A program made the position numbers and the translations under genes. 64,000 nucleotides of DNA, taken from IMG/VR virus record IMGVR_UViG_3300037837_000037, positions 7,694 to 71,693 of that record. One strand, 5' to 3'. The stretch is from a virus (Duplodnaviria; Caudoviricetes). Of this stretch, positions 2,707-51,032 are shown piece by piece (position 1 is the first letter of the stretch; each line of letters starts with the position of its first letter). The notes under the pieces were generated by a model that searched no databases, was not told where the DNA came from, and saw only the letters and a program-made list of their open reading frames with translations.

Positions 2707-3141
2707 TTAACTCCAGTATTTTAATTCAGCTTCTTTACGAGCAGCTATCGCTTCTTCTTTGTTTTCAAAAGCCCCTAAATGGACACGTTTACCTCCGTAA
2801 CTTATCCTAGCAGTCCATTTAAGACCTCTAGACTCTCTAAAATGAACACCTCTACATCCAGAAGTATTGTCTTTCCTTATGTTTTGATTTCTACACTGTG
2901 TAGTTTGATCCGCCCACCTACAGTTAGAACTGCTATAACTCTTATTACTATCTATCCTGTCTAAAGTTTTCCCTTCAGGTCTCACCCCCATATCAGCCAA
3001 GAACGTTTCAAAAGAATTTACCCAGGTACTGCATACGCTTATTCCTTTTCCTCCGTAAATAGAATAATCTTTGTGATTTGGATTTGAACACCTTTCCTTC
3101 ATTCCTCTCCAGGAATCATAACCTTTAATATTACTTATCAT
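2707..3141 (-). CDS. HNH homing endonuclease with C-terminal AP2 domain
   Basis: W..MK.RC.NPN...Y..YGGKGI, TLDRID...Y..SNCRWA (HNH_3 type); GV...KWTARI...KRVHLGAF..KEEAIAARK (AP2). Confidence 0.9.
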   Translation of the reverse strand: MISNIKGYDSWRGMKERCSNPNHKDYSIYGGKGISVCSTWVNSFETFLADMGVRPEGKTLDRIDSNKSYSSSNCRWADQTTQCRNQNIRKDNTSGCRGVHFRESRGLKWTARISYGGKRVHLGAFENKEEAIAARKEAELKYWS

Positions 3142-3231
3142 AAAATAAAAAAACCATTAAGCTTTCGTGGTCGTGACACTACTCGCTTAATGGAATTATA
3201 ATGATTTTTAAATGTAGTCACGACTCTACAT
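3142..3231 (-). ncRNA. structured 5' leader (two kissing hairpins plus terminator) of the HNH-AP2 gene
   Basis: hairpin 3231-3212 with loop AGUCGUGA; hairpin 3193-3154 with GAGUA/GAAA internal loop and apical loop UCACGAC; U7 tract, then AUG. Confidence 0.7.
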
Positions 3232-3234
3232 CGG

Positions 3235-3264
3235 TAAATGTATTAAAAATTATGGGTTAAGCAA
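3235..3264 (-). promoter_or_regulatory. Bacteroidota-type housekeeping sigma promoter
   Basis: TTG (3264-3262)-N19-TACATTTA (3242-3235); predicted +1 at 3231. Confidence 0.65.
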
Positions 3265-4460
3265 CACACTTGACCTTCTTTTTTATGGTGTATAAACGCT
3301 TCTATAGCTTGTTTCGCATGTGTATAACCTGAATCAAAATGCCATAAGTCAGCGGGAGAAGGACTTCTCAAGTGTTGAACAGTAACCCCTTGGTAATCTT
3401 TTGCAGATTGAAACTTAACCTTTATTTGATGGTGAAAGTGATGTAAGTAAAAATATCTGTAGTATGTTTCACCCCATATCTTAGGAGCTTCATTAGCCAT
3501 TAAAAGAGGAGCGTCTGCTGCTTTAAACTTATCACCATGACTTAATCCAATCAAGTTATTACCCCATTTAAAATACTTCCTATGCCTGACGTTTAAATCA
3601 AAAGTGATATTTGCACTTTTTCTAAACCAACTAGAGATAGAATCAGCTAACATCCACCCTGACACGTAGTCATGGTTAGACATGACGTGAACAACTTCAA
3701 CATCAGCTACTGTAAGCAACGATTCTATAACATCTACATACATCTGCTTAGCAATCCTAAAACCCTCGTACCATCTATTAGAAACGTCCTGAGGAGTACC
3801 TCTAGTTGTGGTGTTTGTAACATTATCCACATTCAAAACATCATTCCCAATAATTAGTACGATTTTTTCCAGGGGGAAACCAGAAGCTTTCTGTAAAATA
3901 CCTTCTATAGCTTCTTTTACTCTTTTAACAGCTATTTCAGAATTATAAACACCTCCAGTCTCTTCTTCTGTTGCTTTTTTATTTACATGAATGTCCGCTG
4001 GATCTATAACAAGCAAATGCTTATCTGTTATAGGTTTTCTTTTGTAAGTTTTATAAGTCGGGGAGTATTTCCCCATCTCGTTAACGAAGTCAGCTCTCAT
4101 CTCATCAAAACTCACCACTTCACTTACATTCTTCACAAAGATACTAGCACCATTCTTATCTTTCAACCAAGCATGTTTCCATTTAGCACCACTTGCTTCA
4201 GTAAGGCCATTGTCAAGCATTTGCTTTTCAACTTTATCCATATACTCTTCTGGGATAAGAACCTTATCTTTTTTAGTAAATGGATCTTCAAATTTTCTGT
4301 GTGCTGTATAGTCAGGATGTTGGTTTAACGCTCTCCCTACCCTTGAATTATCAAAACTAACATTATACTTGCTAGTCATCATTTTGGCTATTTGCCGTTG
4401 TGTAAAACCTTTGTGATGTAATGCAATAAACTCGTCAATATTATCGTTATACTTTCCCAT
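3243..4460 (-). CDS. calcineurin-like metallophosphoesterase with N-terminal HTH-like region
   Basis: DPADIH, GNDVLNVD, SNHD, SHGD and HHFHH metal-binding motifs. Confidence 0.8.
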   Translation of the reverse strand: MGKYNDNIDEFIALHHKGFTQRQIAKMMTSKYNVSFDNSRVGRALNQHPDYTAHRKFEDPFTKKDKVLIPEEYMDKVEKQMLDNGLTEASGAKWKHAWLKDKNGASIFVKNVSEVVSFDEMRADFVNEMGKYSPTYKTYKRKPITDKHLLVIDPADIHVNKKATEEETGGVYNSEIAVKRVKEAIEGILQKASGFPLEKIVLIIGNDVLNVDNVTNTTTRGTPQDVSNRWYEGFRIAKQMYVDVIESLLTVADVEVVHVMSNHDYVSGWMLADSISSWFRKSANITFDLNVRHRKYFKWGNNLIGLSHGDKFKAADAPLLMANEAPKIWGETYYRYFYLHHFHHQIKVKFQSAKDYQGVTVQHLRSPSPADLWHFDSGYTHAKQAIEAFIHHKKEGQVCCLTHNF

Positions 4461-4467
4461 AGTGCTG

Positions 4468-4513
4468 TAAATGTACCAAAAAAAATAGTAACGTTAAATT
4501 TTAACGTTACTAT
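4468..4513 (-). promoter_or_regulatory. promoter overlapped by a 29-bp palindrome (terminator or operator)
   Basis: TTA-N19-TACATTTA (4475-4468); ATAGTAACGTTAAA-T-TTTAACGTTACTAT at 4485-4513 next to an A-tract. Confidence 0.55.
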
Positions 4514-4906
4514 AGAGTATTAAACATATTGAAAATAATATGAAAGTATTAGTGATTATTTCTCCAGTGGCTAAGTGCATTTTTTAATTATATGATTACT
4601 ATAATAGCGATATAAGCTCCATATCTTACATTTTGCTACTGGGGTAGCCGTTTCCCACAATCTAAACACTTTCGTTTAGTTATTTCTTCTTCATCTCTTT
4701 CTGCTATGGAGCAAGTGCATTGGTCGGTCATAATCTACTTTTTATTTGTTAGTTGTGGTGGGGGTTAATTGTCATAATCCCCTTTTAAATATCTAAAAAT
4801 AAACTTTCCTACTATCAGCCCTGAAACTATTATTACAAACTGTTTTAAAATCTCTATTGTTCCCATCCTCTTATTTTTAAAGTTAATTTTTCTGTTTATT
4901 CGGGGG

Positions 4907-5089
4907 TTAGTTTAAAACCCAGTAAATAATATTAGCTAATAACACGACCTTTAATAAAGGTACTTTATTAACAAAAACATCAAGTCCATAAATAACGTTA
5001 ATCCATTGTCTTAATCCTTTTGGATTTATTGTTAACTCAAGTAGTTTCCATCCTTTAGGGTAATACTCTGTTCTAAATTCCTTTTCCAT
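4907..5089 (-). CDS. small hypothetical protein, hydrophobic C-terminus
   Basis: 60-aa ORF in operon orientation. Confidence 0.5.
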   Translation of the reverse strand: MEKEFRTEYYPKGWKLLELTINPKGLRQWINVIYGLDVFVNKVPLLKVVLLANIIYWVLN

Positions 5090-5131
5090 ATCTCAATTTT
5101 TAAATTACTGTTATTATTTACTTGTTGGGGG

Positions 5132-5449
5132 TTACTTTTTTGTTAGTTGTTCAAATGCCCATTGTGCGCCTTTGATGAATCCTTGCATTTGTTGCCCTCT
5201 ATCATGTTCTATTCTATCAACTATACTTTCGGGATATAAAATTTGACTTTCCTTTATTGATTGTTTTATAAACTTTTTACGGTTTAGCTGCTCCTTTTCC
5301 GCTTTTGCTGTAAATTCTGATTGTTTCGTTTCGTTCATTGGTTTACTGGCAGGAAGTTGATAGCCTGCAGCCATTCCTACTGCAATTGCTGATTTTGACA
5401 TATCAGGAACTTTGTTTCCTATTGCTATTTTGTTTTCGTCGGTTTTCAT
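5132..5449 (-). CDS. hypothetical protein
   Basis: 105-aa ORF ending QGFIKGAQWAFEQL. Confidence 0.65.
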   Translation of the reverse strand: MKTDENKIAIGNKVPDMSKSAIAVGMAAGYQLPASKPMNETKQSEFTAKAEKEQLNRKKFIKQSIKESQILYPESIVDRIEHDRGQQMQGFIKGAQWAFEQLTKK

Positions 5450-5453
5450 AACT

Positions 5454-5783
5454 CTAATTTAATAATTCCTGATCTTGCAATAACTCTTGCAACTCTTTAG
5501 GCATTTCATCTTCCTCTTCTTCTGATTCAACTTCTGCTGAAGCAGTTTTTTCAAATCTCCAAGTAGCAAATGCTGGTTCCTGCCATCTATCAATTAATGC
5601 AATAGGAACCCTTGGATTAGTAATCTCTTCAAGCAATACTCCAACCACAATATCATTATTATCATGAAAACCCCTAATAGTATACTCATCCCCTTCTTTT
5701 ACCCAATTAGGAACAACTACAGGGTTTTGATCACTTGGACGTACATCATTTACACATTTCACCGTATCACCTATACCAAACAT
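5454..5783 (-). CDS. hypothetical protein with acidic tail
   Basis: 109 aa; GD.VKCVND...EGDEYTIR SH3-like pattern. Confidence 0.7.
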   Translation of the reverse strand: MFGIGDTVKCVNDVRPSDQNPVVVPNWVKEGDEYTIRGFHDNNDIVVGVLLEEITNPRVPIALIDRWQEPAFATWRFEKTASAEVESEEEEDEMPKELQELLQDQELLN

Positions 5784-5784
5784 C

Positions 5785-6015
5785 TCAATTTTTCTTTAAA
5801 TGATTAAACTCTTCATTTTCTATATTCGCGGGAGTACCAACCAAGTACCTTTCATGCACACAATCAACATCTCCTACACTTCCATCAATATAATCTTCTG
5901 TTACCTCTATATAAACTAAATCATTCTTCTTATACTTAAACACTCCCCTTACAACCCTTCCGTAAATATTAAACTCTAAAATACTACCTGGCTTAAACCC
6001 AAACTCATTTCTCAT
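5785..6015 (-). CDS. hypothetical protein
   Basis: 76-aa ORF tightly packed in the operon. Confidence 0.65.
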   Translation of the reverse strand: MRNEFGFKPGSILEFNIYGRVVRGVFKYKKNDLVYIEVTEDYIDGSVGDVDCVHERYLVGTPANIENEEFNHLKKN

Positions 6016-6163
6016 CTTGCATACTTTTAAATAATTTAACCTCCTCCTCTAACCTCTCAACTAAAGCAGTACTAGCAAACACCCTCCCTTGTTGTTGTTT
6101 TAACTTTACCTTAGCCTTTTTTAAAGCCATCTTAGCAATCCCTATCTTATCTTCTATAGTCAT
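6005..6163 (-). CDS. 52-aa basic coiled-coil protein (not in ORF track)
   Basis: hand translation MTIEDKIGIAKMALKKAKVKLKQQQGRVFASTALVERLEEEVKLFKSMQDEK; overlaps the next start. Confidence 0.6.
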   Translation of the reverse strand: MTIEDKIGIAKMALKKAKVKLKQQQGRVFASTALVERLEEEVKLFKSMQDEK

Positions 6164-6174
6164 AATACAATATC

Positions 6175-6471
6175 TTTTTAAAAAGGATTAGGAGCTATGT
6201 CAAACCCCTAATCCTTTACCCCATCTGCAAATCTTATCACTACAATAAGATCATGTAAGAACGACCTTTAATATTTTAAAAACTCTCCAACGTCCTCCAA
6301 GTGCGGAGTAAAGGTGGTTAATGATGCCTCCCTAACCTACGTCTTACCTACGAACCCTTACCTAATCTCAAAGCTAACACCTTGGAAGTGTTGTGAGTCA
6401 TAGTTTATTTTTTTCAAAGTGAGTTATTGCTCACGGAATCACATTGCTTATCCTTTAGCGTTGGAGAGTTT
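6175..6471 (-). ncRNA. candidate structured non-coding RNA
   Basis: 13-bp perfect inverted repeat (6280-6292 / 6459-6471) encloses several hairpins; further hairpins at 6231-6251 and 6182-6217; no ORF of 60 aa or more. Confidence 0.55.
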
Positions 6472-6474
6472 ATT

Positions 6475-6948
6475 TTACTTTATCTTAAAATACACCTCTA
6501 ATAAATCCTTGTGATGTTTTAGAAAGTGGTCACGCAATTTTTCGGTTGGAAAGGATAATTCAAAAAAAGTATTACAGAAATAATTTTTTTGAATTCTATT
6601 TTCAAATCTTTTTATGATGTATTTATAACTACCACCCTCCCAATCCGCGACCCAATCCCCCACATAAGCCTTTCGTAGTTGTAACAACTGGGATAAAGCT
6701 AAAGATGATTCAGCGTCTTGTTTGGTTGGGAATATTTTTTTATTAGAAGAACTTTCTGTAGTTGCATAGTATACTGTGTTATTATTTAACTCATTATCAA
6801 AATAATAACCACTAACACACTTTAACCCCTCCCAACTCGTCGGATACTCATCCTCCACCTTCTTAAATACTACATTACCATCTGCTAAAGACGATTTTTC
6901 TAAGTCAATTACGTGACCTTTTGGAATTTCAATGTTTACTGATTTCAT
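6475..6948 (-). CDS. hypothetical protein of a family I recall from Bacteroidota phages
   Basis: P.SWE...FPTKQDAESSLALSQLLQLRKAY..DW..DW...ELSFPTEKLRDHFL. Confidence 0.75.
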   Translation of the reverse strand: MKSVNIEIPKGHVIDLEKSSLADGNVVFKKVEDEYPTSWEGLKCVSGYYFDNELNNNTVYYATTESSSNKKIFPTKQDAESSLALSQLLQLRKAYVGDWVADWEGGSYKYIIKRFENRIQKNYFCNTFFELSFPTEKLRDHFLKHHKDLLEVYFKIK

Positions 6949-7000
6949 TTGATTTTGTTTTATTTTTTAATACTCAATTTTCTAATTTTGCGGGGAACCA

Positions 7001-7345
7001 CTATATAAACAACTCATTATCTTTTAACCACTTCCTCTCACTACACTCCTCAACCAATAACCCATCATATACCCCCATACCACTTATACTAAACATCTTT
7101 TCCCCCCTCACAGTAAAATCTAAACTAATACCCAACCTATCACTGTAATAAACACCCCCCTTCATCTGATAACAATCAACCCCTATCATAACATACTCAG
7201 GATATAAACCTAACCTAGCATCACTGTTCAAAAACATGCAAACATCTTTAGCCATACTGTAATCATCAATCCAAGCAACCTGCTTGCCATCACCATCAAC
7301 AATACCCTTACCGAACTTCCTTAATATACTATACCTTTTTTCCAT
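7001..7345 (-). CDS. hypothetical protein
   Basis: 114-aa ORF, strongly G/T-rich coding strand. Confidence 0.65.
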   Translation of the reverse strand: MEKRYSILRKFGKGIVDGDGKQVAWIDDYSMAKDVCMFLNSDARLGLYPEYVMIGVDCYQMKGGVYYSDRLGISLDFTVRGEKMFSISGMGVYDGLLVEECSERKWLKDNELFI

Positions 7346-16153: not shown

Positions 16154-16447
16154 ATGGGAAGTACTATACATCAAACAACGTGCGACAACTGCGGTAGTAA
16201 TATGGGGTTTTATGACCACGACTACAAAGAGAAAAGATTAAGAATAGCTTGTGATAACTGTGACTATGAAAAGATAGATGAAAACTTTACAGGATCATTA
16301 GTTTTCAAGCCTAGGTCAATAGGATATTCAGGAACTATGATTGAGTTAACGAAAAAAAGCTGGGAAGAGAAACTATTCGGAGATAAAAAACCAAACTTTA
16401 AAACAAAAATAACACACAGAAAAGATGGGAATAAAATTAACAAATAA
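16154..16447 (+). CDS. zinc-ribbon protein
   Basis: CDNC...CDNC. Confidence 0.65.
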   Translation: MGSTIHQTTCDNCGSNMGFYDHDYKEKRLRIACDNCDYEKIDENFTGSLVFKPRSIGYSGTMIELTKKSWEEKLFGDKKPNFKTKITHRKDGNKINK

Positions 16448-17468
16448 ATACGGAGCACCTGAAGAACTAGTAAGAGCCGCTTCATACGATGATCACGTTA
16501 CAAAAGGTGATATATCGGTAACAACTTTAATAGGCTCTCCTAGAGTGCGTATGTTAAAGCAAAAGAACGAAGTGGAGGAAGACATTAACGACCATGTGTT
16601 TATGTTGTTAGGAACTGCGTTTCATAGTTTAATGGAGACAGGTACTTATACTCATAGAGATTATGAAACATGTAAGTTTGCATACCAAGCATTAAAGAGA
16701 ATGGGTATGGATGATCTAGCTAAGCAAGTAGCTAAAGCAGCTAAAGATAAGTTCCCTGATGAACAAGTAGGTAAAACTATATTCCCAGAAAGGACATTAA
16801 CATTAGATGTTACCCAAGTAAGTAGTGTTGATAATAAAGAGTACACTTATAAAGTGAGTGGAACACAAGATTATTATAATGCTCCCGCAAAATTATTACG
16901 TGACTACAAAGTATGTAACGTAAATAAGTACAAAGAAGATGAGCACATAGAATGGGAACGTCAACAAAACATATACGCTCACATGTTAAGAAACATTGGG
17001 TGCGAAGTAGAGAAGATTGAAATACTTGCAATGTTCAGGAATTGGGGAAAGATGAACTACATCATGAACGCTAAAAAATCAGGAGCAAGATACCCTAATT
17101 CAGTATTCAAAATTATACCGTTAAGAGTTTGGTCCCCTGAAGAATGTGAAGAGTACATTAGAGCAAGAGTAAAGGTACACTTTGAAGCTAGTCAACAAGA
17201 TAAAGTACCTTTGTGTTCGTTTTCAGAAAGGTGGGCTAATCCAGATGTATATGCTGTAATATCTGACAATAGAAAACATGCTGCAAAGAAATGTTATAGC
17301 AAAGCTGCTGCGGAGAAATGGATAGAAGAAAACAAATCAAAAGTTGTTAATCCTAAAATAGAATATAGAATAGAGGTAGGGTTTAAATGTAACTTCTATT
17401 GCAGTGTTGCTAAGTTTTGTAAGCAAAAGAAAGATAGAGAAACTTATATTGAAAATAGTAAAAAGTAA
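16425..17468 (+). CDS. PD-(D/E)XK exonuclease with C-terminal Cys cluster (Cas4/RecB-like)
   Basis: LLGTAFH, SGTQD, LRDYK, QQNIYAHML; C..CxxxCxxxxxC. Confidence 0.8.
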   Translation: MGIKLTNKYGAPEELVRAASYDDHVTKGDISVTTLIGSPRVRMLKQKNEVEEDINDHVFMLLGTAFHSLMETGTYTHRDYETCKFAYQALKRMGMDDLAKQVAKAAKDKFPDEQVGKTIFPERTLTLDVTQVSSVDNKEYTYKVSGTQDYYNAPAKLLRDYKVCNVNKYKEDEHIEWERQQNIYAHMLRNIGCEVEKIEILAMFRNWGKMNYIMNAKKSGARYPNSVFKIIPLRVWSPEECEEYIRARVKVHFEASQQDKVPLCSFSERWANPDVYAVISDNRKHAAKKCYSKAAAEKWIEENKSKVVNPKIEYRIEVGFKCNFYCSVAKFCKQKKDRETYIENSKK

Positions 17469-17472
17469 AATT

Positions 17473-17850
17473 ATGAAAAAATTTAAAGATTTATCAATAG
17501 GAGATATTATATATGTTATTAGAAAAAATAACATAAACCATTCAGAAGGCTTTTTTGTTGAGATTAAGGTAACAGATTTAAGTTTAAGTAGTGAAGGTAT
17601 CTTACTAGTTAATAGGAACGAGTATAGCGGGAAGTATATATTGACAATATCTAAAACAGTTCAAAAACAATCTACTTATAATTACGACGGTCTTCTTTAT
17701 ATAACTAACAAAGAAGAGCTGAAGCCTTTCGTTGTGAAACTTGTAATTGAAGAGATAAAACATCAAGAAGAGTCAGTGCCTAAGGCAATTGAAAGAGCAA
17801 AGAAAAATATAGAAGAGTTAAGAAAATGTTATTGGGAGTACTTAAATTAA
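17473..17850 (+). CDS. hypothetical protein
   Basis: start reassigned to the ATG at 17473 (MKKFKDLSIGD) just after the upstream stop. Confidence 0.7.
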   Translation: MKKFKDLSIGDIIYVIRKNNINHSEGFFVEIKVTDLSLSSEGILLVNRNEYSGKYILTISKTVQKQSTYNYDGLLYITNKEELKPFVVKLVIEEIKHQEESVPKAIERAKKNIEELRKCYWEYLN

Positions 17851-17855
17851 AGATT

Positions 17856-18041
17856 ATGGCAAACAATACGATTATAGACAATAGAGTGGTTTTAAAAACA
17901 AGATCTTTAGGTCCAACAGAATCTCCTAGCATAACACAAGACCTAAAAACAGTACTAGCTAATTTAGTAGCACTTACTACTACAGACCATAGCGGGTTAG
18001 CTAAAGAATCAGTTAAAATATTAAATAAGTATATAAAATGA
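17856..18041 (+). CDS. small hypothetical protein
   Basis: start reassigned to the ATG at 17856. Confidence 0.6.
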   Translation: MANNTIIDNRVVLKTRSLGPTESPSITQDLKTVLANLVALTTTDHSGLAKESVKILNKYIK

Positions 18042-18244
18042 CAGCTAAAGAAATAAATGAAGAGATAAATAAAACTCTCGCTAACCCCGCTTATTTCGCT
18101 GAGAAGTATTGCTGTGTTATAAACGGAAAAGGAGAAACCAAGAAGATGAATTTAACACAGTATCAAAAGAAGATACTTGAGGATTTATTTATAAAAGGAT
18201 CGACAGTTATAGGTTTTAAGAAAGGATTAGGTAAAAATGGATAA
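18038..18244 (+). CDS. 68-aa protein resembling the N-terminal ATPase segment of a T4-gp17-type terminase
   Basis: YFAEKYC, LTQYQKKIL and GLGK align by eye with the recalled T4 gp17 [16 protein letters not shown] and QLGK. Confidence 0.55.
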   Translation: MTAKEINEEINKTLANPAYFAEKYCCVINGKGETKKMNLTQYQKKILEDLFIKGSTVIGFKKGLGKNG

Positions 18245-19954: not shown

Positions 19955-21763
19955 ATGAAGATAACGTTAAGTAAAGACGGCAAGAGACTATTGCTCCAAA
20001 AACACTTCTCCGATGAGGAACTGTTAACAGCAGAATGTCTTGATATGACTGTCAAAGACAAAGGAAAGGTAGTAGTAGATATTCGTATAACATGCAAAGC
20101 AGCTCTATTAAAGTTCGCTAAGTATGTTGACCGTAACTTAATGGATAATCCATATAACGAAGACAAGAAGAAAGTCTTTGTTGATACTATCAGGAACTTA
20201 TACATTACAGATGCTAAAGAGTTTGTAGCTAAGTATTCTCCCGCAACTTTATACAGTGACGTAGGTGATGGTAAAAAGAAACTTAAACCATATCAAGCAG
20301 AAGCTTTATGGGCGTTCAGGAATAGACAATTCAACCTTTGCGCTTTTGAACAAGGACTCGGTAAAACACTATTCGCAGCTTCATTAACTAAAATCTTTAA
20401 ACTTAAACGTACACTAATCATTTGCCCGTCACTTACTAAATGGAATTGGTATACTGATCTTACTGAAGACTGGGGATTTAACCCTTTGTTCTTTACACTG
20501 CTGGACCGAGATAAGTCCATGTTCAGTGTAATGAGCGAATCATTTGTAATAGTAAACTACGAAAGTATAGTAAAGTACTACGAACACATAGTTAAAGCAG
20601 ATGTTAATCATATTATTATTGACGAAGCGCATTATGTAAAAAATAGTTCTACAAATAAATATAAGAACGTAAGTAAATTAATAAAGAAGTTTCCTAAAGC
20701 AAGAGTTACGTTTTTAACTGGTACTCCGATTAAGAACAGAATAACAGATGTATTCGCTTTATTAAAACTTAGTGGACACCCAATGGGTAAGAACTTCGTA
20801 GAGTTCAAAAGAAGGTATGCTAGAGGTAATGGCCAAAAGATTACAGGTGTAAAGAACGTGCCTGACTTTAGATTAAAGTTATCTAATTGGATACTTAGAA
20901 AGAAAGCAGAAGAAGAATTAGATTTACCAGAACTTAGAATCAAAAGGTACTTCTTTGAAATGAATGACGAGAGTACTAAAAAGTATCAAGAGTTAGTCAG
21001 GGAAATGTATGAAGCTCAAAAAGAAGCTACTGAATTAGGTATTGAGTTAGAGCAATTGAAAGCTGACTTAGCTACTCCAGGAATGGAAGGGATGACTATG
21101 AAGAGGTCAAGGTTAGTATATGTAAGGAATGCTAAAAAGAAAGCTACAATGAAGAGTAGAGGGAACATAATGACCCTTAACAGAGTGTGTAGTGAATCTA
21201 AAATACCAAGTGTAATCAAGTTAGTCAAATCTTTAAACGATCAAGGAGAGAAGGTGATAGTGTTTAGTTTCTTTAAGACTGTGCTTAATCAATTAAAAGA
21301 TCAGTTAGGTAATAGCGCAGTATTGATAGATGGAAGTGTAAGCAGTATGAAGAGGAGGAATAGGATTGATAAATTTAAGAAGAAGACAGATGTAACGGTG
21401 TTCCTTGGTCAAGTAATAGCTGCTGGTATTGGTATTAACTTAGTTAATGCTAGGAAGGTAATATTTATGGATATGGGATTCACCCCCGATTTATTAGAAC
21501 AACCATACAAACGTGCTCATAGAATGGGGCAAACTAGAGATGTGGAGGTAATGTATACAATGATACCAGATAGTATTGACGAAAGGATATATAGACTTAT
21601 TGAAGGGAAGACGGATGATATTAATTCTGCTATTGATCACAAAAAAGCGGGAGTAGTACAATATGGTTCTTTAGAGAAGAAGTTGTTTAAGTCACTGATA
21701 TTAGATTACGAAAAGAAGAACAGTATTGCCAAAACTATCACCAATAGATTTGAAAAGGTATGA
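19955..21763 (+). CDS. SNF2-family helicase
   Basis: LKPYQ, FEQGLGKT, IIDEAH, LTGTPIKN, GIGINL, QPYKRAHRMGQ. Confidence 0.92.
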   Translation: MKITLSKDGKRLLLQKHFSDEELLTAECLDMTVKDKGKVVVDIRITCKAALLKFAKYVDRNLMDNPYNEDKKKVFVDTIRNLYITDAKEFVAKYSPATLYSDVGDGKKKLKPYQAEALWAFRNRQFNLCAFEQGLGKTLFAASLTKIFKLKRTLIICPSLTKWNWYTDLTEDWGFNPLFFTLLDRDKSMFSVMSESFVIVNYESIVKYYEHIVKADVNHIIIDEAHYVKNSSTNKYKNVSKLIKKFPKARVTFLTGTPIKNRITDVFALLKLSGHPMGKNFVEFKRRYARGNGQKITGVKNVPDFRLKLSNWILRKKAEEELDLPELRIKRYFFEMNDESTKKYQELVREMYEAQKEATELGIELEQLKADLATPGMEGMTMKRSRLVYVRNAKKKATMKSRGNIMTLNRVCSESKIPSVIKLVKSLNDQGEKVIVFSFFKTVLNQLKDQLGNSAVLIDGSVSSMKRRNRIDKFKKKTDVTVFLGQVIAAGIGINLVNARKVIFMDMGFTPDLLEQPYKRAHRMGQTRDVEVMYTMIPDSIDERIYRLIEGKTDDINSAIDHKKAGVVQYGSLEKKLFKSLILDYEKKNSIAKTITNRFEKV

Positions 21764-25077: not shown

Positions 25078-25533
25078 ATGGAAAAATATTATACACCAAA
25101 AATAGAAGAGTTTCATGTTGGGTTTGAGTATCAATATAACAACGCTTCAACAAGACCAAAAGAAGAGCAAGAGTGGTCTGACACGAAAACAGCTTCTGGC
25201 ATGGCTATAGAATCTGCTGAATACGATATGTCAGACCAGCCTCCAGAAAACGAAAGAGAGGCTAGGAGAAACGGATTTAGAGTCAAACACCTAGACCGTG
25301 AGGATATTGAGAGTTTTGGGTTTTTCGCTGCAACAAGTAGCGGTATGGCTAATAGTTATGGAAAGCGAGATTCTAAAAACGAATTAAGGTTTGTGCTTCA
25401 TGAACAACATCAAGATAAAACTATTAAAATAGAGTGTGTGTTGTATTACGATGCAGGGAAAAGAACAATATTTGAAGGCACTATTAAAAACAAATCAGAA
25501 CTTAAACGATTACTAAAACAATTAGGGATATGA
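25078..25533 (+). CDS. hypothetical protein of a family I recall from Bacteroidota phages
   Basis: KYYTPKIEEFHVGFEY...RVKHLDREDIESFGF...FEGTIKNKSELKRLLKQLGI. Confidence 0.75.
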   Translation: MEKYYTPKIEEFHVGFEYQYNNASTRPKEEQEWSDTKTASGMAIESAEYDMSDQPPENEREARRNGFRVKHLDREDIESFGFFAATSSGMANSYGKRDSKNELRFVLHEQHQDKTIKIECVLYYDAGKRTIFEGTIKNKSELKRLLKQLGI

Positions 25534-42590: not shown

Positions 42591-45500
42591 TCACTTATAT
42601 GTTATTTTCCTCCACTTACTCTTTTCTCCATACAGCATTTCGTCTTTAACAGACTTTCTTAACTTCTGTAAATACACTTTATATTTAGCATCGTCTTTTT
42701 TCAAATCTTTCATAAGAGTCTTACCTTCATCACCCTTAAACTCTTTTATGTATTCAGCTAAAACTCTAGAATCATACTCCTCTTTAAAGCTATCCCTCAC
42801 CTCTGTAGGTATCTCTTTCTTATCGTTACTTACATAAACAAACTTCTTACCTTTTGTGAAGTCAGGAACTATATCATTCTTCTTTAAGTTAGTACCACTC
42901 ATTAAGTAATTCCAAGAATTGGACTTATCAGAATCTATACCTACAATATCTTGAAAGCTTTTTAATATATCATCAGAAGTTAAAGGTATCTTATTGCTAA
43001 CCCTTACTTTTTGACCTAAGTTATCTTTGTAATCTTCTTTTAAGTGATCTAAGAAAGGAACGTTAGTTGAAATCTTATCAGCCATGTAAGATAAAGCCCA
43101 ATCAGAATCTTTAATATCTACATTAGCTTTCTTAAACTCATTAAATAAACTTGTCTTCCAACTATAAGCTTGACTGTAGAAACTAGGCATTGCTACCCCC
43201 TTAGCTCCTCTTACAATCTGATCAGCTATATACTTCTTAGTTTTATTACCAGCAGTCTCTTCATTGTTTATAATCTTAAACACATCACCAACAGCTTGTA
43301 AGAAGTTTTGTTCTTTAAAGAAAAATAAAGCGTTCATCTTAGCTACATCTACCGCATCCCACATTTCTTCATTAGTAACTACAGTGTTATAATCTTCTCT
43401 ATCATACTTTAACTTATCTGACATTCCTCCCGCAAACGCTAAAGTAGGTCCTAAAGGGGAATCTCTATAATCAATCCAACCACTCCACTGATTTGTTCCT
43501 GGATACTTAAATCTAAAATGGAATTGCTTTAAACCTTTTTCATCCTCTAACTTTTGATTATCTTCAAAACTACCCTTTCCTTTATAAGTAATTTCAATTC
43601 TCTTATCCTCATCATCGTCAGGTAAGTCAAACGTTGAAGTCACAGCATATATTAAAGCTCCAGCAGCAGCAGTTCCGATACCTTGTTTAACTAAGTAATC
43701 CATTCTGTTTTCAGCAATAAACTCCTTGCCAGCTACACTCTTTTTTACTAACTCATCAGAAACGTAAGTGCTTCCAAAGCTAGTTTTATTCATAGCTTTC
43801 ATAACATTACCTCTGCCGAATAAAGCTTTTTTCAAACCTAAAACAGGAACGTAATCTGTAGCTGCATCAGCTAAGTTCAATGGTATTTTTAAGAAAGGTA
43901 TAACAAACATAGCTAAAGGTACATTACTTAAAAACGTAGACAACTTATCATAAACAAACCCAAAACTACCCTTTGGATGATGACCTAGCCTCATCTCCAT
44001 AGACTTCTGTTCTGCTTGAACTTTTATATCATCTTCTAGTAAGTCAAATATAACTTCTTGAACACGTTGCTTCTTTCTAAAGTTTTTAGTATCAACCCCA
44101 GCAGCTTTTAACTTAGCTAATTCCAAATCAACTTGCAATTCAGCAGTCTTTCTAGCAGCATCCGTATTACCAGTTCTACGATCCAACTCTTCCCAAAACT
44201 CTTTAGTTTTAGTGCTAGAGTAGTTACCTTCTCTTAAAATCTTATTATAAGCACCTATCACTACATGCCCTTGTCTTACAGAATAATGAGCTACAGCATC
44301 AGAAGCGAACAACAATCTTAACATTTTTGATCCTGGAGTCTCGTATAGTTTAGCTATTTTTTTAGCCGTACTTAAATCTTTCCATTCAGCGTTAGCTAAC
44401 TGATCAAGAACACCTAAACTAGTATTAGCTTCTTTAGCACCCTCTAAAGCACTCTCGTAAGGAATGTAACCCTCTTTCCAAGCATCTTTTATTATATCAG
44501 GACCTAAGTTTTTAAATCCTTTTAAAATAGAACTCATAACCCTGAAATTCTGAAACGTTTTACCATGAAGATTACCCTCTTTAGTAAACATCGCTCTCAA
44601 ACCTTTCGTGAACAACTTCGGATTCTTAAGGAACTCAGTTAATAATTGTAGTCCACCACCCCATGTAAGCCCGTATACACTCCTTAAAGTAGTAGATGCT
44701 GTTCCTAATATGTGTTGGTAGAAATAAGACGTTATAACGCCATGATAGTACCTCTCTAGCCAGTTCTTATTGTCAGCTTCAAGACTATTCATGTAAGTCC
44801 TGAAGTTTATAAAAGCTTTATCTCTAGCTACACTTCTTTCAGGTAAGTGCGAAATGTCATATATAAAAGCGTTTAACTTTTGAGCATCAGTTCCAGTAAG
44901 ACTAGCAAACCCGAATCTAGTAGCGAAAGCATCCAAGAAAGCATCTTCAGTTAAAGCACCCATATTGATTGCTTTAATAATATTTTCAACAGTAACCTTG
45001 TCAGATTTCAATACTTCATTTAAAGCTTCGTCAGTTAAATCAGGAACACCCAATACTTTAGCTAAAGCTTTTCTAGCATAAGGTTCTATCAATTTACCAA
45101 ACTGCTTCTCTAAAGAAGCTGCTAGTTCGTCTGCTTGAGTTGGTGTTAAATCAGTATCAGCTACTATCTTCTCAGCTAATGATCTAGCTTTCTCTTTTAC
45201 AGTGTCAATACCTTTACCATTCTTTTTAACTGCTGAGTAATGTTCTGCTACTATATCGTTAATCTTCTCCCCGTCACTTTTGATTTGCTCCTTTAAAGAA
45301 CTATCTAGTAAAGATTTACTAAAAGGCATACCTACTTCGTCACCGAAAAGAGATTCTAAGTCTTTTAATATCTTTCCTTTCTCCCCGCCACTAATAATTC
45401 CATTAGCTTCTTTATTATTAAGAATATCAACTATAGTATTTCTAGAACTATCCCAAACCTCCTTAGCGAAAGTTTGCTCTTGCATAGCTTTTATAAGCTT

Positions 45501-48500
45501 ATTCCTATAATCAGTATCACTTTCTAATTCACCTTGAGTAGGTAAACTATCTTTAGCTTTTGCAAACAAGTTCCTTATAAGAACATCTACAGCATCTCCC
45601 GTTTTCTTATTCTTCTTCTGAGAAACGTAATCTATTATTTTATCAGCTAGTTTTTTAGAAGAATCATCTTTATTATCTTGAATCTCCTTTTCTACATCAA
45701 CATTATTAAGAACCTTTAAAATATCACTATCAGACAAGTCTCTACCATGCTCCTTTTTAAAATACTCTTTCAATGCAGAAGCAACCTGAGATACTTTTAG
45801 CATACCTGACTGAACATAAGTCTTAGCTATATCACCAGCATACTCTATTCCTTCAGGAGTTAACATAGGGATTACAGATGAGAAGAATATGTTCTTTCCC
45901 CCCTCTTTAAAATCCTTTTTAATTTGCTTCCTTTTAGCTTTTAATTCAGCTCTCTTAGTACTAAAACTATTCTTTTTATCAGTTTTCTCTTGAGCTGTTT
46001 TTTTAGCTGCTTTTTCTTTCTTAATATGTTCTTCAATAGCCTTATCTACAGCGTCCTTAAATTGAGGATGAGAAGATATATCACCAACTTCATCAGTAAG
46101 CTCAGTCCTAGCTTCATCTAACGTTTCCTTAGAAGCAACCTCGTCTTTACCTTGCTTGTCAGCGATTAAAGAATCTCTATGAGACTTAACCCTGTCTTGA
46201 ATCATTACAGTCTCAGTAAACGCAGTATATACCATAGCGTCCATTATATTATCTGGAGCCGTAATACCTAAAGCTTGAAAAGACCTACCTAAAATTTCAG
46301 CAATCTTTGTTTTTCTTATATTAACATCTGTAGCGTCATTTACACGACCTTCACTTTGATAAAGCAAAGCTGCTCCGTCCATAATCCAAACACCTACCTG
46401 ACCATACTTTAAGAAGTTACCCTCTACATCAGCTAACAACAACTCTAAACCACCTTCTATTTGAGAGAAAGCTTGAACTAATTGTATAGCTTGATCTTGT
46501 GACCATTTATTACTAATAGCAGTATATCTAATACTGTCATTTATCTTTAACTTATTCTTAACGTCGGCACTAATATTAGGGCTAGTTAATAAGGTTTCTA
46601 TATGCTTATTCAGCTTCTTTGTATCAGAAGGTTTGCCTTGTGATAAATCATCTCTAACCTCATGTAAAGCATCGTAAGCTTCATCTAATTCGTCTTTTAT
46701 TCCTTTTTTCTCTTTTTTACGCTCTTTCTTTTTAGCTTCTCTCGCTTCTTTTTTAGTTCCCTCAACTTTAGCTTTCTCAATCTTAGCTAACTCGTTAATA
46801 TCTTCAGAAGCTTTGATTAAAGCAGGGTTTATTTTCTCTTTTATCTTCTTTCTCTCCGCAGGCAGTTTCTTCTTATACCAATCAGACTTTTTGATATGAG
46901 CTAAACCTTCAGCTACAGCAGCAGCCGTTGAACCTCCAGCATAAATAGACTTAGCCATAATCTCTACAGCAGCATTCCAAACAAGGTCAACTCCTATTGT
47001 CGCTTTCATGTCTCCTGGAAGCTTGATTTTAAGCTTCCTAACAGCTTCAACGAAAGAATCTGTATTATCTTTTATCTTTTGCGCTTGACTTTGCTCCTCA
47101 GCTTTAGCTTCCATTTCAGCGTTCATCTCCTCTTCAGATAACACCTCTTCTTCAGTAAGCTCTCTTGTACTAACCTCGTTAATAAGAAGTGCAGTTAACC
47201 CACCTTTACCGTCTGAAATTTCAAACACTCCTTTTTTTCTAGCATCAGCCAAGCCAGCTATTACTCTTCTAGCACTTACAGATGTTAGATTACCTTTCTT
47301 AATTTGCTTCACCCCAGCTTTTATATCTCCAGCACTTAATCCAGTACTCCTTAAACCAGCAAGATGTATTCTACCTGTAGTAGCATCACCATCCAATAAA
47401 CCGTTATTAACCTCTCTCTCAGCCCAAGTCTCATCTGTACTAGACACTTCTTGAGAAACCCATTCGTTAACATCTTTCGGTGAAAACTCATTAGATTCTT
47501 TTATCTTCTTACCATCAGAATCAGTAACTTTTATCTTCTTACCGTCTTGACTAATAGTTCTTTTTTGCTCTCCAGACATTTTCTGGATTTTAGCTAATAA
47601 CGCTTGACCTTCTTTGCTTTTCTTTTTAGCATCAGTCATTTCGTTATAATTAACAACCTCCCTGACAAGTGAGTTATTTCTACTCTCAGCTTTTTTAGCA
47701 GCTTCTAACTTAGCGTCAGCTTTTGCTTGTTTTGCTTCTGCCTTTAATTTCTTAGCTTCAGCTTTAGTTTCTTGTTCTGTTTTAACCTCTTCTTTGGTTT
47801 CTCCCGCAGTTTCGGTTTCGGCAACCGTTTCAGTAACTTCAGGTGTTGTTTCTGTCGTTTCAACTTCAGATTCAACCGCTTCAGGAACAACCTCTTCCAC
47901 AACCTCCTCAGTAACACCCGCTGCTTTATCTAAATTCGCTTGAACCGCTGCGTTAGGATTCTTGATAACCATATTAGATAACTGCTCTGGAGTCATCTTA
48001 GCTACCTCTTCTTTAAGATAGAACTTACCTTCTTTATTAGTATATTTTGACTCTCCAGAATCATCAATAGTTACTTCAGCAGGTTCAATAACAACTTCAG
48101 CAGTTGGTTCTGTTACCGCATCTTCAGTAACACCACCTTTAGTATCTTTAGCCTCTACCGATTCGTCAGTAGACCTATCAGTAACTACTTCAACAGGAGC
48201 CTTAGACTCTCTAAATAATTCAAAACTTTGATTCTTTCTTAATTCAGAAAACTCCTCTTTAGTTAACACCCTTTCATCACGACTCAGCGTAGTATGTACT
48301 TTATCTTCACCGTTTAAATTAACGGTTTTTTCCTGATCACTATCTACGGTAACATGAACGTTAAAATCCTTATCAATCTTATTTATTTTATAAGACTCAT
48401 TCACCACCTCTCTACCGTCAGAACTAGTTACAGATACGTTAAATGTATCACCCCCTTTTACAGGACTCTTCTTATCAGTTACTTTAGTAAAAGTACCTTC

Positions 48501-51032
48501 TTCAGTTTTAACCCCTTTATCAACTTCACCAGCAGCTTTTCTGTACTCTTTAGCTACCTTGTCCATTATGCCATCAGCTTTCTCCATGTCATAACCACCC
48601 TCTACCAACTTCTTCCTTACATCACTGTAAGCACCTTGAATACCAAAGATACCCCCTGATAAACCAGTCAATATAGCAAACTCAGTAACAGCATCCATAT
48701 CAGGAAACTGTTTCTTTAACTCCTCAGACATTCCTTTTAAAGAATCTGAAGAGTTGTAAGCTCCGACAATAGACTGTATACTTTCCTCTGTAATCTCAGC
48801 AGCAGATCTTGTTGCAATCTTAGTAGCAAAATCTAAAGCTGCTTTTGAAGTAAGCCCCATACCCTTAATAAACATAGGTACATACTTCATCCCTCCCGCT
48901 TTTAATAAATTCTCAAAAGCTTTAGAACCTATTTCACCTACAGCAAATTGCTTAAACTCTAATTCCTCTCTATCGTTAAATATCCTACCAGAAACATCAG
49001 CGTTAACACCAGCTTGTAAACCTGAAAAAAGAAGCTTACCAGCTTTGCTTTTATTTAACACTTTCTCAACCTTAGTTAATGCTTTAGCTATTTTACCAAC
49101 TTTCATTGATTTTAAAACTCCAGTACCACCCATAAGGTGAACCATCATAGCAAAAGAACCACCTGTAGTACCAGCGAACTTCTGCCACGTTACACCTTTC
49201 TCAGGAGTAGCAACTAAATCAGTCCAAGCTTCTAAATTCTCTTTTAAAACACCTTCACCTTCAGCTATTCCGTACTCACCTAATGTACCAACAAGTTCAG
49301 CGGATTTAGTTGTGTCAGATTGCTTACCTGAAGCTCTAGCCATATTAGGAACTAAATGTCCAGCAAAACTATTCATAAGTTCATCCCAATAATTAGGACT
49401 AGCATAAGCTGTGTTATTCAAAAAGATGTTAGTTAAATCATCCATGTCACCCTTCATCTGCATAGCATCAATCTCCATAGGAGTTAAGCTACCCAATATC
49501 TCTCCAGAAAAATCAACACCTAACACGCTTTCAATACCTAAGAAATCTCTAAAGGTATTTTCTATAGTAGCATCGTATTCTCCCGTTTCAGCATCCAATA
49601 AATCAGCAGCTAAAAGACTATTCATAGTAGCCTCTTTTAACGCAAGATAAAACACATCAAACTTCTCTTTAGAAGAAAGGTTTTCAGGTATATCTTTAAG
49701 TATCTCTCTATAAAGATTATATTTTTCAGTACCCTCTTTTACATCATCAAAAACTAAGTCAGCAGTTTTAGCACCATCCTCTTCAAAGAAAGCTCCTACT
49801 GACCGTTCTCTTTTATCAATAAGGTCAGTTATAACCTTTTTCTCAGCAACCGTCAAGCTCTCGTTCTCTTTAACAAGTTTAGCTTTTAAATCACTTATTT
49901 CTTCATTAACGCTGTCATGCTTCTTATCTAAGAAAACTTGCTTCTCAGCTTGAAGACTATTCACTTCATTCATCTTCTCAGATAATGAACCTGCAATAGC
50001 AGCCACTTCTTCAACACTCCTCATAGCAAAACGCTTCAAGTCAGTATCAGTAAGCCTATTTCCTAAAACTTTATTATCCTTAGCTATTTGATCTAATAAA
50101 TCCTTCTTGTACGCAGCTATTTCTTCTGCCTTGTTTTCAGATTTATTTATAGCAGCTAGTTTTACATACGCATTGTTCGGAGTTGTAGTAGTTGCTAATG
50201 CACCCAATATAGACTCCTTACTCGTAGCTTTAGCTAGTTTTTTATTAAAACCATATTCCTCCTTAGCTTCTTTGCTAACAAAAGAACCTTTAGCTACCTC
50301 ATTCTTACTATTAGTTATATAACTCTCGTAATCACCCCTAGCATCTCTCTCAATAGCAGATACATGTCCTTTTAAGACGTTCTCAAGACCTTTTTGCTTC
50401 TCAGCTTCGTAGTTATCTAATAAATCTTGTTTGCCCTGTAAGGCTATCTCTCTAGCAGCTTCTTTTTCTTGCTCAGAAATATTAACATCATCCTCAATTT
50501 CTTTAAGGGTAGCTTCAATATCTTTCTCTGTAGATAACTTAGGTTTTAAAGCTTCTTGCAATTGATTATAAACTTCCTCACCCTTTTTTATACCCATAGG
50601 GTCCTCAGCCTTTTTAGCTTCAGTTTCAGAAAGCTCTTTTTGTAAAGCTACTCTCTCGTCCTTAATATTATTAAAATGAGTAGGGTTTAAGTACCTTGAA
50701 AAGTCCTCACCAGAAACGCCTAGGTCATCTTCTTTTAATTGAGAATCCAATCCAGATTCTTGAGAAGGTAATACCGATTGAAAAGATTGTGCCTCCTGAC
50801 TTTCTTCTTCTATTGGTGCTTGGTTTTGCGCCACTACCGCTGGTTCTTCTGTTACCTTTTCTGCTATCGGTGTGACTGCCTCCTTTTTTGGCTGTGCTGG
50901 TTCTACTACAGGTCCAAAATCAAAACCTATTTCCTCTTCTACTTCTTTTGATGTTGAGATACTTGGTTCAACCCCTTTTGAAGGTCCAAAATCAAAACCA
51001 ATATCATCGCTATACTCTTCGTCTTTTGCCAT
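42591..51032 (-). CDS. giant (2813 aa) internal virion/ejection protein
   Basis: helical and charged; follows two smaller cargo-like genes; no RNA polymerase motif recognised. Confidence 0.65.
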   Translation of the reverse strand: MAKDEEYSDDIGFDFGPSKGVEPSISTSKEVEEEIGFDFGPVVEPAQPKKEAVTPIAEKVTEEPAVVAQNQAPIEEESQEAQSFQSVLPSQESGLDSQLKEDDLGVSGEDFSRYLNPTHFNNIKDERVALQKELSETEAKKAEDPMGIKKGEEVYNQLQEALKPKLSTEKDIEATLKEIEDDVNISEQEKEAAREIALQGKQDLLDNYEAEKQKGLENVLKGHVSAIERDARGDYESYITNSKNEVAKGSFVSKEAKEEYGFNKKLAKATSKESILGALATTTTPNNAYVKLAAINKSENKAEEIAAYKKDLLDQIAKDNKVLGNRLTDTDLKRFAMRSVEEVAAIAGSLSEKMNEVNSLQAEKQVFLDKKHDSVNEEISDLKAKLVKENESLTVAEKKVITDLIDKRERSVGAFFEEDGAKTADLVFDDVKEGTEKYNLYREILKDIPENLSSKEKFDVFYLALKEATMNSLLAADLLDAETGEYDATIENTFRDFLGIESVLGVDFSGEILGSLTPMEIDAMQMKGDMDDLTNIFLNNTAYASPNYWDELMNSFAGHLVPNMARASGKQSDTTKSAELVGTLGEYGIAEGEGVLKENLEAWTDLVATPEKGVTWQKFAGTTGGSFAMMVHLMGGTGVLKSMKVGKIAKALTKVEKVLNKSKAGKLLFSGLQAGVNADVSGRIFNDREELEFKQFAVGEIGSKAFENLLKAGGMKYVPMFIKGMGLTSKAALDFATKIATRSAAEITEESIQSIVGAYNSSDSLKGMSEELKKQFPDMDAVTEFAILTGLSGGIFGIQGAYSDVRKKLVEGGYDMEKADGIMDKVAKEYRKAAGEVDKGVKTEEGTFTKVTDKKSPVKGGDTFNVSVTSSDGREVVNESYKINKIDKDFNVHVTVDSDQEKTVNLNGEDKVHTTLSRDERVLTKEEFSELRKNQSFELFRESKAPVEVVTDRSTDESVEAKDTKGGVTEDAVTEPTAEVVIEPAEVTIDDSGESKYTNKEGKFYLKEEVAKMTPEQLSNMVIKNPNAAVQANLDKAAGVTEEVVEEVVPEAVESEVETTETTPEVTETVAETETAGETKEEVKTEQETKAEAKKLKAEAKQAKADAKLEAAKKAESRNNSLVREVVNYNEMTDAKKKSKEGQALLAKIQKMSGEQKRTISQDGKKIKVTDSDGKKIKESNEFSPKDVNEWVSQEVSSTDETWAEREVNNGLLDGDATTGRIHLAGLRSTGLSAGDIKAGVKQIKKGNLTSVSARRVIAGLADARKKGVFEISDGKGGLTALLINEVSTRELTEEEVLSEEEMNAEMEAKAEEQSQAQKIKDNTDSFVEAVRKLKIKLPGDMKATIGVDLVWNAAVEIMAKSIYAGGSTAAAVAEGLAHIKKSDWYKKKLPAERKKIKEKINPALIKASEDINELAKIEKAKVEGTKKEAREAKKKERKKEKKGIKDELDEAYDALHEVRDDLSQGKPSDTKKLNKHIETLLTSPNISADVKNKLKINDSIRYTAISNKWSQDQAIQLVQAFSQIEGGLELLLADVEGNFLKYGQVGVWIMDGAALLYQSEGRVNDATDVNIRKTKIAEILGRSFQALGITAPDNIMDAMVYTAFTETVMIQDRVKSHRDSLIADKQGKDEVASKETLDEARTELTDEVGDISSHPQFKDAVDKAIEEHIKKEKAAKKTAQEKTDKKNSFSTKRAELKAKRKQIKKDFKEGGKNIFFSSVIPMLTPEGIEYAGDIAKTYVQSGMLKVSQVASALKEYFKKEHGRDLSDSDILKVLNNVDVEKEIQDNKDDSSKKLADKIIDYVSQKKNKKTGDAVDVLIRNLFAKAKDSLPTQGELESDTDYRNKLIKAMQEQTFAKEVWDSSRNTIVDILNNKEANGIISGGEKGKILKDLESLFGDEVGMPFSKSLLDSSLKEQIKSDGEKINDIVAEHYSAVKKNGKGIDTVKEKARSLAEKIVADTDLTPTQADELAASLEKQFGKLIEPYARKALAKVLGVPDLTDEALNEVLKSDKVTVENIIKAINMGALTEDAFLDAFATRFGFASLTGTDAQKLNAFIYDISHLPERSVARDKAFINFRTYMNSLEADNKNWLERYYHGVITSYFYQHILGTASTTLRSVYGLTWGGGLQLLTEFLKNPKLFTKGLRAMFTKEGNLHGKTFQNFRVMSSILKGFKNLGPDIIKDAWKEGYIPYESALEGAKEANTSLGVLDQLANAEWKDLSTAKKIAKLYETPGSKMLRLLFASDAVAHYSVRQGHVVIGAYNKILREGNYSSTKTKEFWEELDRRTGNTDAARKTAELQVDLELAKLKAAGVDTKNFRKKQRVQEVIFDLLEDDIKVQAEQKSMEMRLGHHPKGSFGFVYDKLSTFLSNVPLAMFVIPFLKIPLNLADAATDYVPVLGLKKALFGRGNVMKAMNKTSFGSTYVSDELVKKSVAGKEFIAENRMDYLVKQGIGTAAAGALIYAVTSTFDLPDDDEDKRIEITYKGKGSFEDNQKLEDEKGLKQFHFRFKYPGTNQWSGWIDYRDSPLGPTLAFAGGMSDKLKYDREDYNTVVTNEEMWDAVDVAKMNALFFFKEQNFLQAVGDVFKIINNEETAGNKTKKYIADQIVRGAKGVAMPSFYSQAYSWKTSLFNEFKKANVDIKDSDWALSYMADKISTNVPFLDHLKEDYKDNLGQKVRVSNKIPLTSDDILKSFQDIVGIDSDKSNSWNYLMSGTNLKKNDIVPDFTKGKKFVYVSNDKKEIPTEVRDSFKEEYDSRVLAEYIKEFKGDEGKTLMKDLKKDDAKYKVYLQKLRKSVKDEMLYGEKSKWRKITYK

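Follow-up and report, generated by a model that had tools for sequence, protein, structure and literature searches.

A 68-residue homolog of the large-terminase ATPase lead-in, probably maintained as a stand-alone gene in the replication block of a putative crAss-like phage

We describe a short phage gene (positions 18038–18244, plus strand) whose 68-aa product is a stand-alone homolog of the lead-in of the ATPase domain of T4-class large terminases (TerL), corresponding to residues ~102–167 of T4 gp17. This gene, which we call mini-TerL or mini, is very probably a real, maintained and functional gene of TerL origin. Our account as a whole, to which we assign a probability of about one half, is that mini is a maintained, non-catalytic TerL derivative acting by binding or mimicry, a mode of action that we infer. 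Unless a record or locus is named, positions refer to the window, that is, the whole stretch of 64,000 nucleotides that was analysed, which represents bases 7694–71693 of a complete virus record of 71,693 bp with direct terminal repeats. The source phage is uncultured and, to judge from its sequence, crAss-like: an ORF of 1,515 aa (53589–58136, minus strand) matches the crAss muzzle protein PF25731 in Pfam (E=1.8e-16). This match places the phage close to Crassvirales, although its genome has 71.7 kb. The minus strand also carries an ORF of 2,813 aa (42591–51032) for which no Pfam match was obtained.

The mini gene is located in the replication block and not in the packaging or head module. 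The surrounding features are:

16425–17468, plus strand: PD-(D/E)XK-type exonuclease, 347 aa (phrog_2139, E=4e-31), 79% identical in the ~71-kb relative L007 and 33% identical in the distant relative L004
17473–18041, plus strand: two small ORFs, one of 125 aa (17473–17850) and one of 61–71 aa (17826/17856–18041)
18038–18244, plus strand: mini-TerL gene, 68 aa
18258–19700, plus strand: AAA_23/SbcC-like ATPase (PF13476, phrog_1499), 480 aa, or 487 aa if counted from 18237
19955–21763, plus strand: SNF2-family helicase (Pfam SNF2-rel_dom and Helicase_C) with its own YQ...GLGKT

Thus, mini is flanked by the exonuclease and the SbcC-like ATPase, and the SNF2 helicase, an RNase T-like exonuclease and a sliding clamp are encoded downstream. 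Together with the two small ORFs, it fills a hypervariable slot between exonuclease and ATPase. The 71-aa ORF of this slot had no match in Pfam or PHROG, and the 125-aa ORF had only non-significant ones (E>=0.009); neither has a counterpart at this position in L007 or L006, the small ORFs found there being unrelated. Scans of composition and for promoters or terminators around mini gave nothing informative. An earlier note on this DNA had described the gene as lying far from the head genes, which agrees with its place in the replication block and with the resident TerL being encoded ~20 kb away on the other strand. The same note had proposed translational coupling on both sides. Upstream this is supported, as an ATGA stop/start overlap joins mini to the preceding gene and recurs in four lineages. 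Downstream, an 8-nt overlap with the ATPase gene would need the ATG at 18237, which is not conserved, whereas the ATPase start common to the window, L007 and L004 is at 18258 (MSEL...), 13 nt past the mini stop. This conserved start makes the overlap doubtful, and on the aligned sequences the ATPase most likely starts at 18258 rather than at 18237.

The relationship to TerL was found by several independent comparisons. Using HMMER, residues 4–67 of mini aligned without gaps to chain positions 104–167 of T4 gp17 in 3EZK, reproducing the match to the same gp17 string that had previously been drawn by eye. When the PDB was searched with the single mini sequence, gp17 was the sole match (E=0.005). 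Among the PHROG families, mini matched phrog_5989, 'terminase large subunit' (E=4.3e-6), and this family was matched by all six mini family members tested, with a best E-value of 4e-11. A tblastn search of 50,697 phage genomes returned 1,472 records with 35–38% identity over residues 4–66, and the annotated features among the 40 matches listed were all large terminases. With a profile built from the mini family, gp17 was retrieved at E=2.2e-8 as the only PDB sequence with E<0.1, and comparison of this profile with T4-class TerLs by hhalign gave 98.8% (E=1.4e-16), residues 102–166 of gp17 corresponding to residues 1–66 of mini. In agreement with the initial reading of the sequence, the protein contains the YQ motif and stops within Walker A, its C-terminus being GLGK-NG-stop where gp17 reads QLGKT. 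A complete Walker A (G-K-[ST]) is absent from the 68 residues, as are Walker B, the catalytic glutamate, motif III and the C-terminal nuclease domain.

Structure prediction divided the protein into two parts:

18038–18196, plus strand: predicted folded module, residues 1–53 (helix 3–15, helix 17–24, beta-hairpin 26–36, helix 41–53)
18197–18241, plus strand: basic tail, residues 54–68, equivalent to TerL strand beta1 plus the truncated Walker A, predicted to be disordered and poorly conserved

The AF2 model reached a pLDDT of 80.6 overall and of ~88 over residues 1–50; values in the tail were 50–67, falling below 50 for residues 65–68. Foldseek searches with this model gave T4 gp17 as the top four PDB matches (probability 0.96–0.99, rmsd 2.2–2.7 A) and TerLs as the matches in a viral library, although the AF2 input alignment contained real TerL N-termini and the TerL conformation may therefore have been imposed on the model. 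Profile and Foldseek comparisons with terminases had been suggested in the earlier note, and both the hhalign score and these fold matches, like the matches to phrog_5989 and gp17, support its description of mini as a terminase ATPase N-terminal fragment.

Conservation within the mini family is uneven along the protein. Mean pairwise identity is 53% for residues 1–26, 29% for residues 27–53 and 23% for residues 54–68, and only the two N-terminal helices (DPVYFAEKY) are well conserved, with the signature E-[LIV]-x-K-C-x-x-D-P-V-Y-F-A-E-K-Y within residues 1–26. In contrast, the YQ motif is lost in six of the nine members and the P-loop stub varies, with tails ending in NTGKQ, NKN, RRK or TRN besides the GLGK-NG of the window. 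Since the YQ motif and the Walker A stub are not conserved and the tail is predicted to be disordered, nucleotide binding does not seem to be the selected function. The selected part, as judged from the alignment and the model, is the helical module. On the same grounds (a stop inside Walker A, a YQ motif mostly lost and a tail predicted to be disordered), minis are predicted to be non-catalytic.

The family to which mini belongs is rare. When 1.84 billion representatives were searched exhaustively with phmmer, five stand-alone homologs of 57–67 aa (33–56% identical) were retrieved; a search with a profile brought three more, P0009 (63 aa), P0011 (67 aa) and P0019 (75 aa). In total, there are at least eight other stand-alone proteins of 57–75 aa, which are 33–55% identical, so that nine distinct sequences are available, each from a few metagenome contigs. 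Word-indexed searches with the single sequence, covering near and longer lengths, returned nothing but mini itself, and when IMG/VR was scanned with the alignment of the family, full TerLs, an interrupted TerL and a 199-aa paralog were returned but no new minis. Two long phmmer matches, P0004 and P0006, were discarded as spurious because they are cadherin-like/DUF4369 repeat proteins, and other matches of 75–117 aa turned out to be N-terminal pieces of genuine TerLs at contig ends. Two loci, L002 and L003, carry an identical mini gene on essentially identical DNA and thus hold no divergence information. The ESM Atlas contains unnamed clusters of 70–88-aa viral proteins, which we regard as leads and not as evidence.

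When aligned with real TerLs, minis showed several derived traits. They begin at a conserved T-E/P-E motif, have an aliphatic residue before K-C where TerLs have Y/W, carry 'KG' instead of NRF/HRY, and end in a basic tail at the place of RQxGKS. A tree based on 57 homologous columns united minis and a 199-aa protein in one group apart from all full-length TerLs (support 94/98), suggesting a single origin; a strictly monophyletic mini clade without the 199-aa protein was neither shown nor rejected (p-AU 0.096). This protein is encoded as follows:

L023:5010–5609, plus strand: 199-aa stand-alone TerL-ATPase paralog, directly upstream of a 532-aa T4-class TerL (5618–7216, plus strand)

Like minis, the L023 paralog has the same start (…DPVYFAEKY), and it was matched by hhalign at 96.8% (E=2.5e-10). 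Unlike minis, it has a Walker A (RQWGKT) followed by ~140 further residues of the ATPase core, and it adjoins the terminase gene. It may be an evolutionary intermediate between TerL and minis, and a series leading from full TerL through a stand-alone ATPase paralog to a lead-in module of ~60 aa is plausible.

Several observations indicate that the gene is under selection. Within the family, pN was well below pS, and dN/dS was ~0.16–0.3 (0.16 for P0005/P0009 and 0.17 for window/P0002) compared with 0.08–0.43 for neighbouring genes, values that are rough because synonymous sites are near saturation. The chance of an open 68-codon frame at this composition is ~0.008, and frames are open in nine diverged lineages. 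In L007, flanking genes are 67–79% identical, whereas mini is 43% identical and occupies the same position before the ATPase; its dN is 0.51 versus 0.13–0.33 in flanking genes, that is, it diverges 2–4 times faster. The earlier impression that the gene looks maintained is thus substantiated by the existence of a family, the shared truncation, purifying selection and the conserved position in L007. Likewise, the survey of homologs that had been proposed along with it revealed a common truncation and not random ones.

The genomic surroundings of minis differ considerably. In L004, the exonuclease directly adjoins the ATPase, without mini or small ORFs in between. The gene downstream of mini is an 84-aa ORF in L006, and in L012 and L013 the downstream ORFs match no window protein. 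In L009 and L018, mini closes a series of small genes on the plus strand, and the genes that follow are convergent, on the opposite strand. In L016 it follows rIIB-like, Thy1 and UDG genes and precedes a gene for an HTH protein, and in L017 it follows a DnaA_C-like gene; on the downstream side, L015 and L017 stop at the contig end. The window also encodes a 151-aa protein without a family (25078–25533, plus strand), homologs of which recur beside minis in other phages: in L012 and L013 the homolog immediately precedes mini, and in L009 it lies three genes upstream of it. All minis lie in early/replication gene blocks of several contexts, 'early' being defined by gene neighbourhood alone, and none lies in a packaging module. 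These varied contexts, together with the patchy distribution and fast divergence, point to an accessory gene.

The phage has a terminase of its own, which is encoded outside the window:

Record ~3068–5554 (L001:49–2535), minus strand: resident TerL-type protein, 828 aa, identified with the T4-class TerL profile

A profile of four full-length T4-class TerLs aligned to this protein at 97.1% (E=7e-11) over 214 columns spanning the whole ATPase domain, including its own lead-in motif, a deviant P-loop, Walker B (VFVDEAG) and motif III. The P-loop reads GKPRQIAATTT, in which the canonical GK[ST] position lacks a lysine but one occurs five residues upstream; Walker B is intact, and the protein has a long N-terminal extension. 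No nuclease domain was detectable by sequence. The resident TerL had no match at E<=1e-5 in the 50,697 phage genomes and no relatives in a pattern scan. At the other mini-carrying loci, the flanks examined contain no resident TerL. When gp17 of phage VR20 was searched against the whole genome, mini was the best match (E=2.8e-6, 38% identity), followed by the resident TerL (E=6e-5), and no counterparts of gp17 residues 167–611 were found. Mini and the resident TerL share only a motif of 17–28 residues. Pfam Terminase_6N and 6C had no matches in the genome, and a weak gp17-like match at 6383–6451 (E=0.066) was dismissed as a chance hit, as it is non-coding and lies between minus-strand genes.

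Among known proteins, T4 gp17-class TerLs (PDB 2O0H, 3CPE, 3EZK; phrog_5989) are homologous to the whole of mini in sequence and predicted fold, sharing the KC..D..YFAE.Y helix, the hairpin, the YQ helix and the start of the P-loop. Mini differs from them in comprising ~65 of ~600 residues, in its family-specific substitutions and in the lack of conservation of the YQ/P-loop stub. T4 vs.8 resembles mini in being a TerL-derived stand-alone protein that is encoded away from the packaging genes; it is reported to keep Walker A/B and the ATPase fold and activates EcAvs2 (PMC13601566). However, vs.8 has 219 aa with an ATPase core, whereas mini lacks the core and complete Walker motifs, and hhalign of the mini-family profile against vs.8 gave 0.2%. 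Short N-terminal ORFs of split TerLs, such as those among BFVD matches and in L020 and L021, are like mini in being short, in consisting of the TerL N-terminus and in ending near the P-loop. In contrast to mini, which is trimmed at both ends and followed by nothing, they keep an N-terminal extension of ~50–100 residues and the rest of the gene follows. In L020 (2953–3462) and L021 (4851–5360), the frame of a T4-class TerL leaves TerL sequence after the P-loop GK (…RQTGK followed by CNYF…) and ends at 169 aa; from its sequence, this departure looks like the start of an intein.

In the account that we favour, mini originated from the N-terminal lead-in of a T4-class TerL ATPase domain, of which it retains the two helices, the beta-hairpin, the helix of the 'Q-motif' and, in degenerate form, a stub of strand beta1 and the P-loop; the family has spread between early/replication blocks of uncultured crAss-like or related phages. 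As the determinants of nucleotide binding are lost or unconserved but the helical module is kept, we infer that the protein is most likely a stand-alone binding module. It would mimic the TerL lead-in and engage, early in infection, a factor that recognises this surface. Three candidate targets can be named, each of them tentatively: a host terminase sensor; packaging, either through the machinery of T4-class phages that infect the same cell or through the timing of this step in the phage itself; and an unrelated partner gained after exaptation. Equally, a function other than mimicry would be compatible with three helices and a basic tail.

Some explanations do not involve mimicry. The harmless relic offered as an alternative in the earlier note would be the leftover of a foreign terminase with a frame that is open by chance. 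It would fit a gene that is short, rare and devoid of catalytic motifs, and the window mini and P0002 stop 1–2 residues past the P-loop GK, which is the site interrupted in the TerL of L020 and L021; truncation at such an apparent intein site suggests a way in which a fragment could arise. We nevertheless consider a relic very improbable and effectively rejected, as intact frames of similar length in nine lineages, a pN well below pS, the sharing of N-terminal boundary, derived residues and ATGA junction, and the retention of mini at its position in L007 despite the replacement of the small ORFs beside it all argue against it. Even less credit, amounting to near exclusion, is given to mini being the first exon or N-extein of a split TerL, or an N-terminal fragment of an SF2/SNF2 helicase. 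Short N-terminal TerL ORFs do occur in Campylobacter and Agrobacterium phages (BFVD matches), and in the SNF2 helicase of the window YQ and GLGKT have the same 19-residue spacing, but the complete genome holds no remainder of a T4-type TerL, the phage owns a complete TerL-type ATPase, and the gene downstream of mini encodes an unrelated ATPase. A search of Rfam detected neither a group I intron nor any other family. The SNF2 helicase was rejected as the source of mini (BLASTP E=0.11; 0.3% with the family profile, against 98.8% for TerLs), and mini had no match to Pfam SNF2/ResIII at E<=1. It had also been suggested that mini regulates the adjacent ATPase, and it could be a cofactor or regulator of the recombination module formed by the SbcC/Rad50-like ATPase and the exonuclease, since in both the window and the diverged L007 the ATPase gene is the next one downstream. 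This adjacency was seen only in the window/L007 lineage, however; exonuclease and ATPase adjoin without mini in L004, the downstream gene is not an ATPase in L006, L009, L016 and L018, and the recurrent link in L009, L012 and L013 is to the homolog of 25078–25533. The proposal is thereby weakened, and we regard it as improbable.

Large terminase is a main 'pattern' protein by which Avs1–3 and Upx detect tailed phages. To our knowledge, phage answers to terminase sensing are hardly known, and no phage-encoded terminase decoy was found in the literature searched. An early-made mini could bind an Avs1–3- or Upx-like TerL sensor without activating it and thus blunt abortive infection once late TerL appears. 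This decoy function, put forward for Avs sensors in the earlier note, has some arguments in its favour, as mini imitates a protein that is detected by at least four sensor families (PMC13601566) and as its variable slot, fast evolution and patchy distribution are hallmarks of accessory genes; the latter are suggestive only, because any accessory gene has them. Most Avs families form broad shape-complementary pockets round the core of the target, and in the case of Avs2 and Avs3 it is the folded, ATP-bound ATPase core that is enveloped, whereas in the Upx model the unfolded ATPase core strands beta1 and beta4–6 are bound, perhaps co-translationally (PMC13601566, PMC13581612). Of the surfaces required by these sensors, mini has only the lead-in and a degenerate beta1 stub, and the folded core enveloped by Avs2/Avs3 is missing. 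The Upx model leaves room for an N-terminal mimic, since the lead-in and beta1 are the first parts of the ATPase domain to leave the ribosome, and Upx is present in Bacteroidota (HpUpx); yet the beta1/P-loop stub is the least conserved part of minis and is predicted to be disordered, and the conserved helical lead-in has not been reported as a sensed epitope. Moreover, T4 vs.8 triggers EcAvs2 instead of blocking it. A decoy function is therefore doubtful, and its narrower form, in which minis are an early mimic of the first-translated TerL segment and occupy, without activating it, either an Upx-like host sensor of nascent or partly unfolded terminase or another, as yet undescribed TerL sensor of Bacteroidota, appears rather unlikely. 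Interference with packaging, by a dominant-negative fragment acting on T4-class terminases (e.g. those of co-infecting competitors) or on the timing of the phage's own packaging, is about as doubtful. In its support, mini resembles T4-class TerLs far more than it resembles the resident TerL, and as the latter is very divergent, foreign motors could be targeted and the phage's own spared. A precedent exists in PLE Gpi, a small satellite-encoded packaging inhibitor that binds ICP1 TerL (PMC11417361). Gpi is similar to the proposed mini as a small accessory protein acting on the packaging motor through protein binding, but it is satellite-encoded, unrelated to TerL and not reported to be derived from it. 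In the literature searched, gp17 residues 104–155 were not described as taking part in contacts of TerL with TerL, TerS or portal, and the only known roles of this segment were the adenine-binding motif and a nearby mobile loop.

Irrespective of the target, minis constitute a concrete, conserved and very small TerL-derived family that appears to be kept among phage early genes. They provide a documented case, with evidence of selection, of a phage accessory gene that is a trimmed copy of a core packaging protein, and they are easily synthesised candidates for sensor antagonism, interference with T4-type motors or another exapted role. If the decoy function were true, mini would be the first terminase-derived immune decoy.
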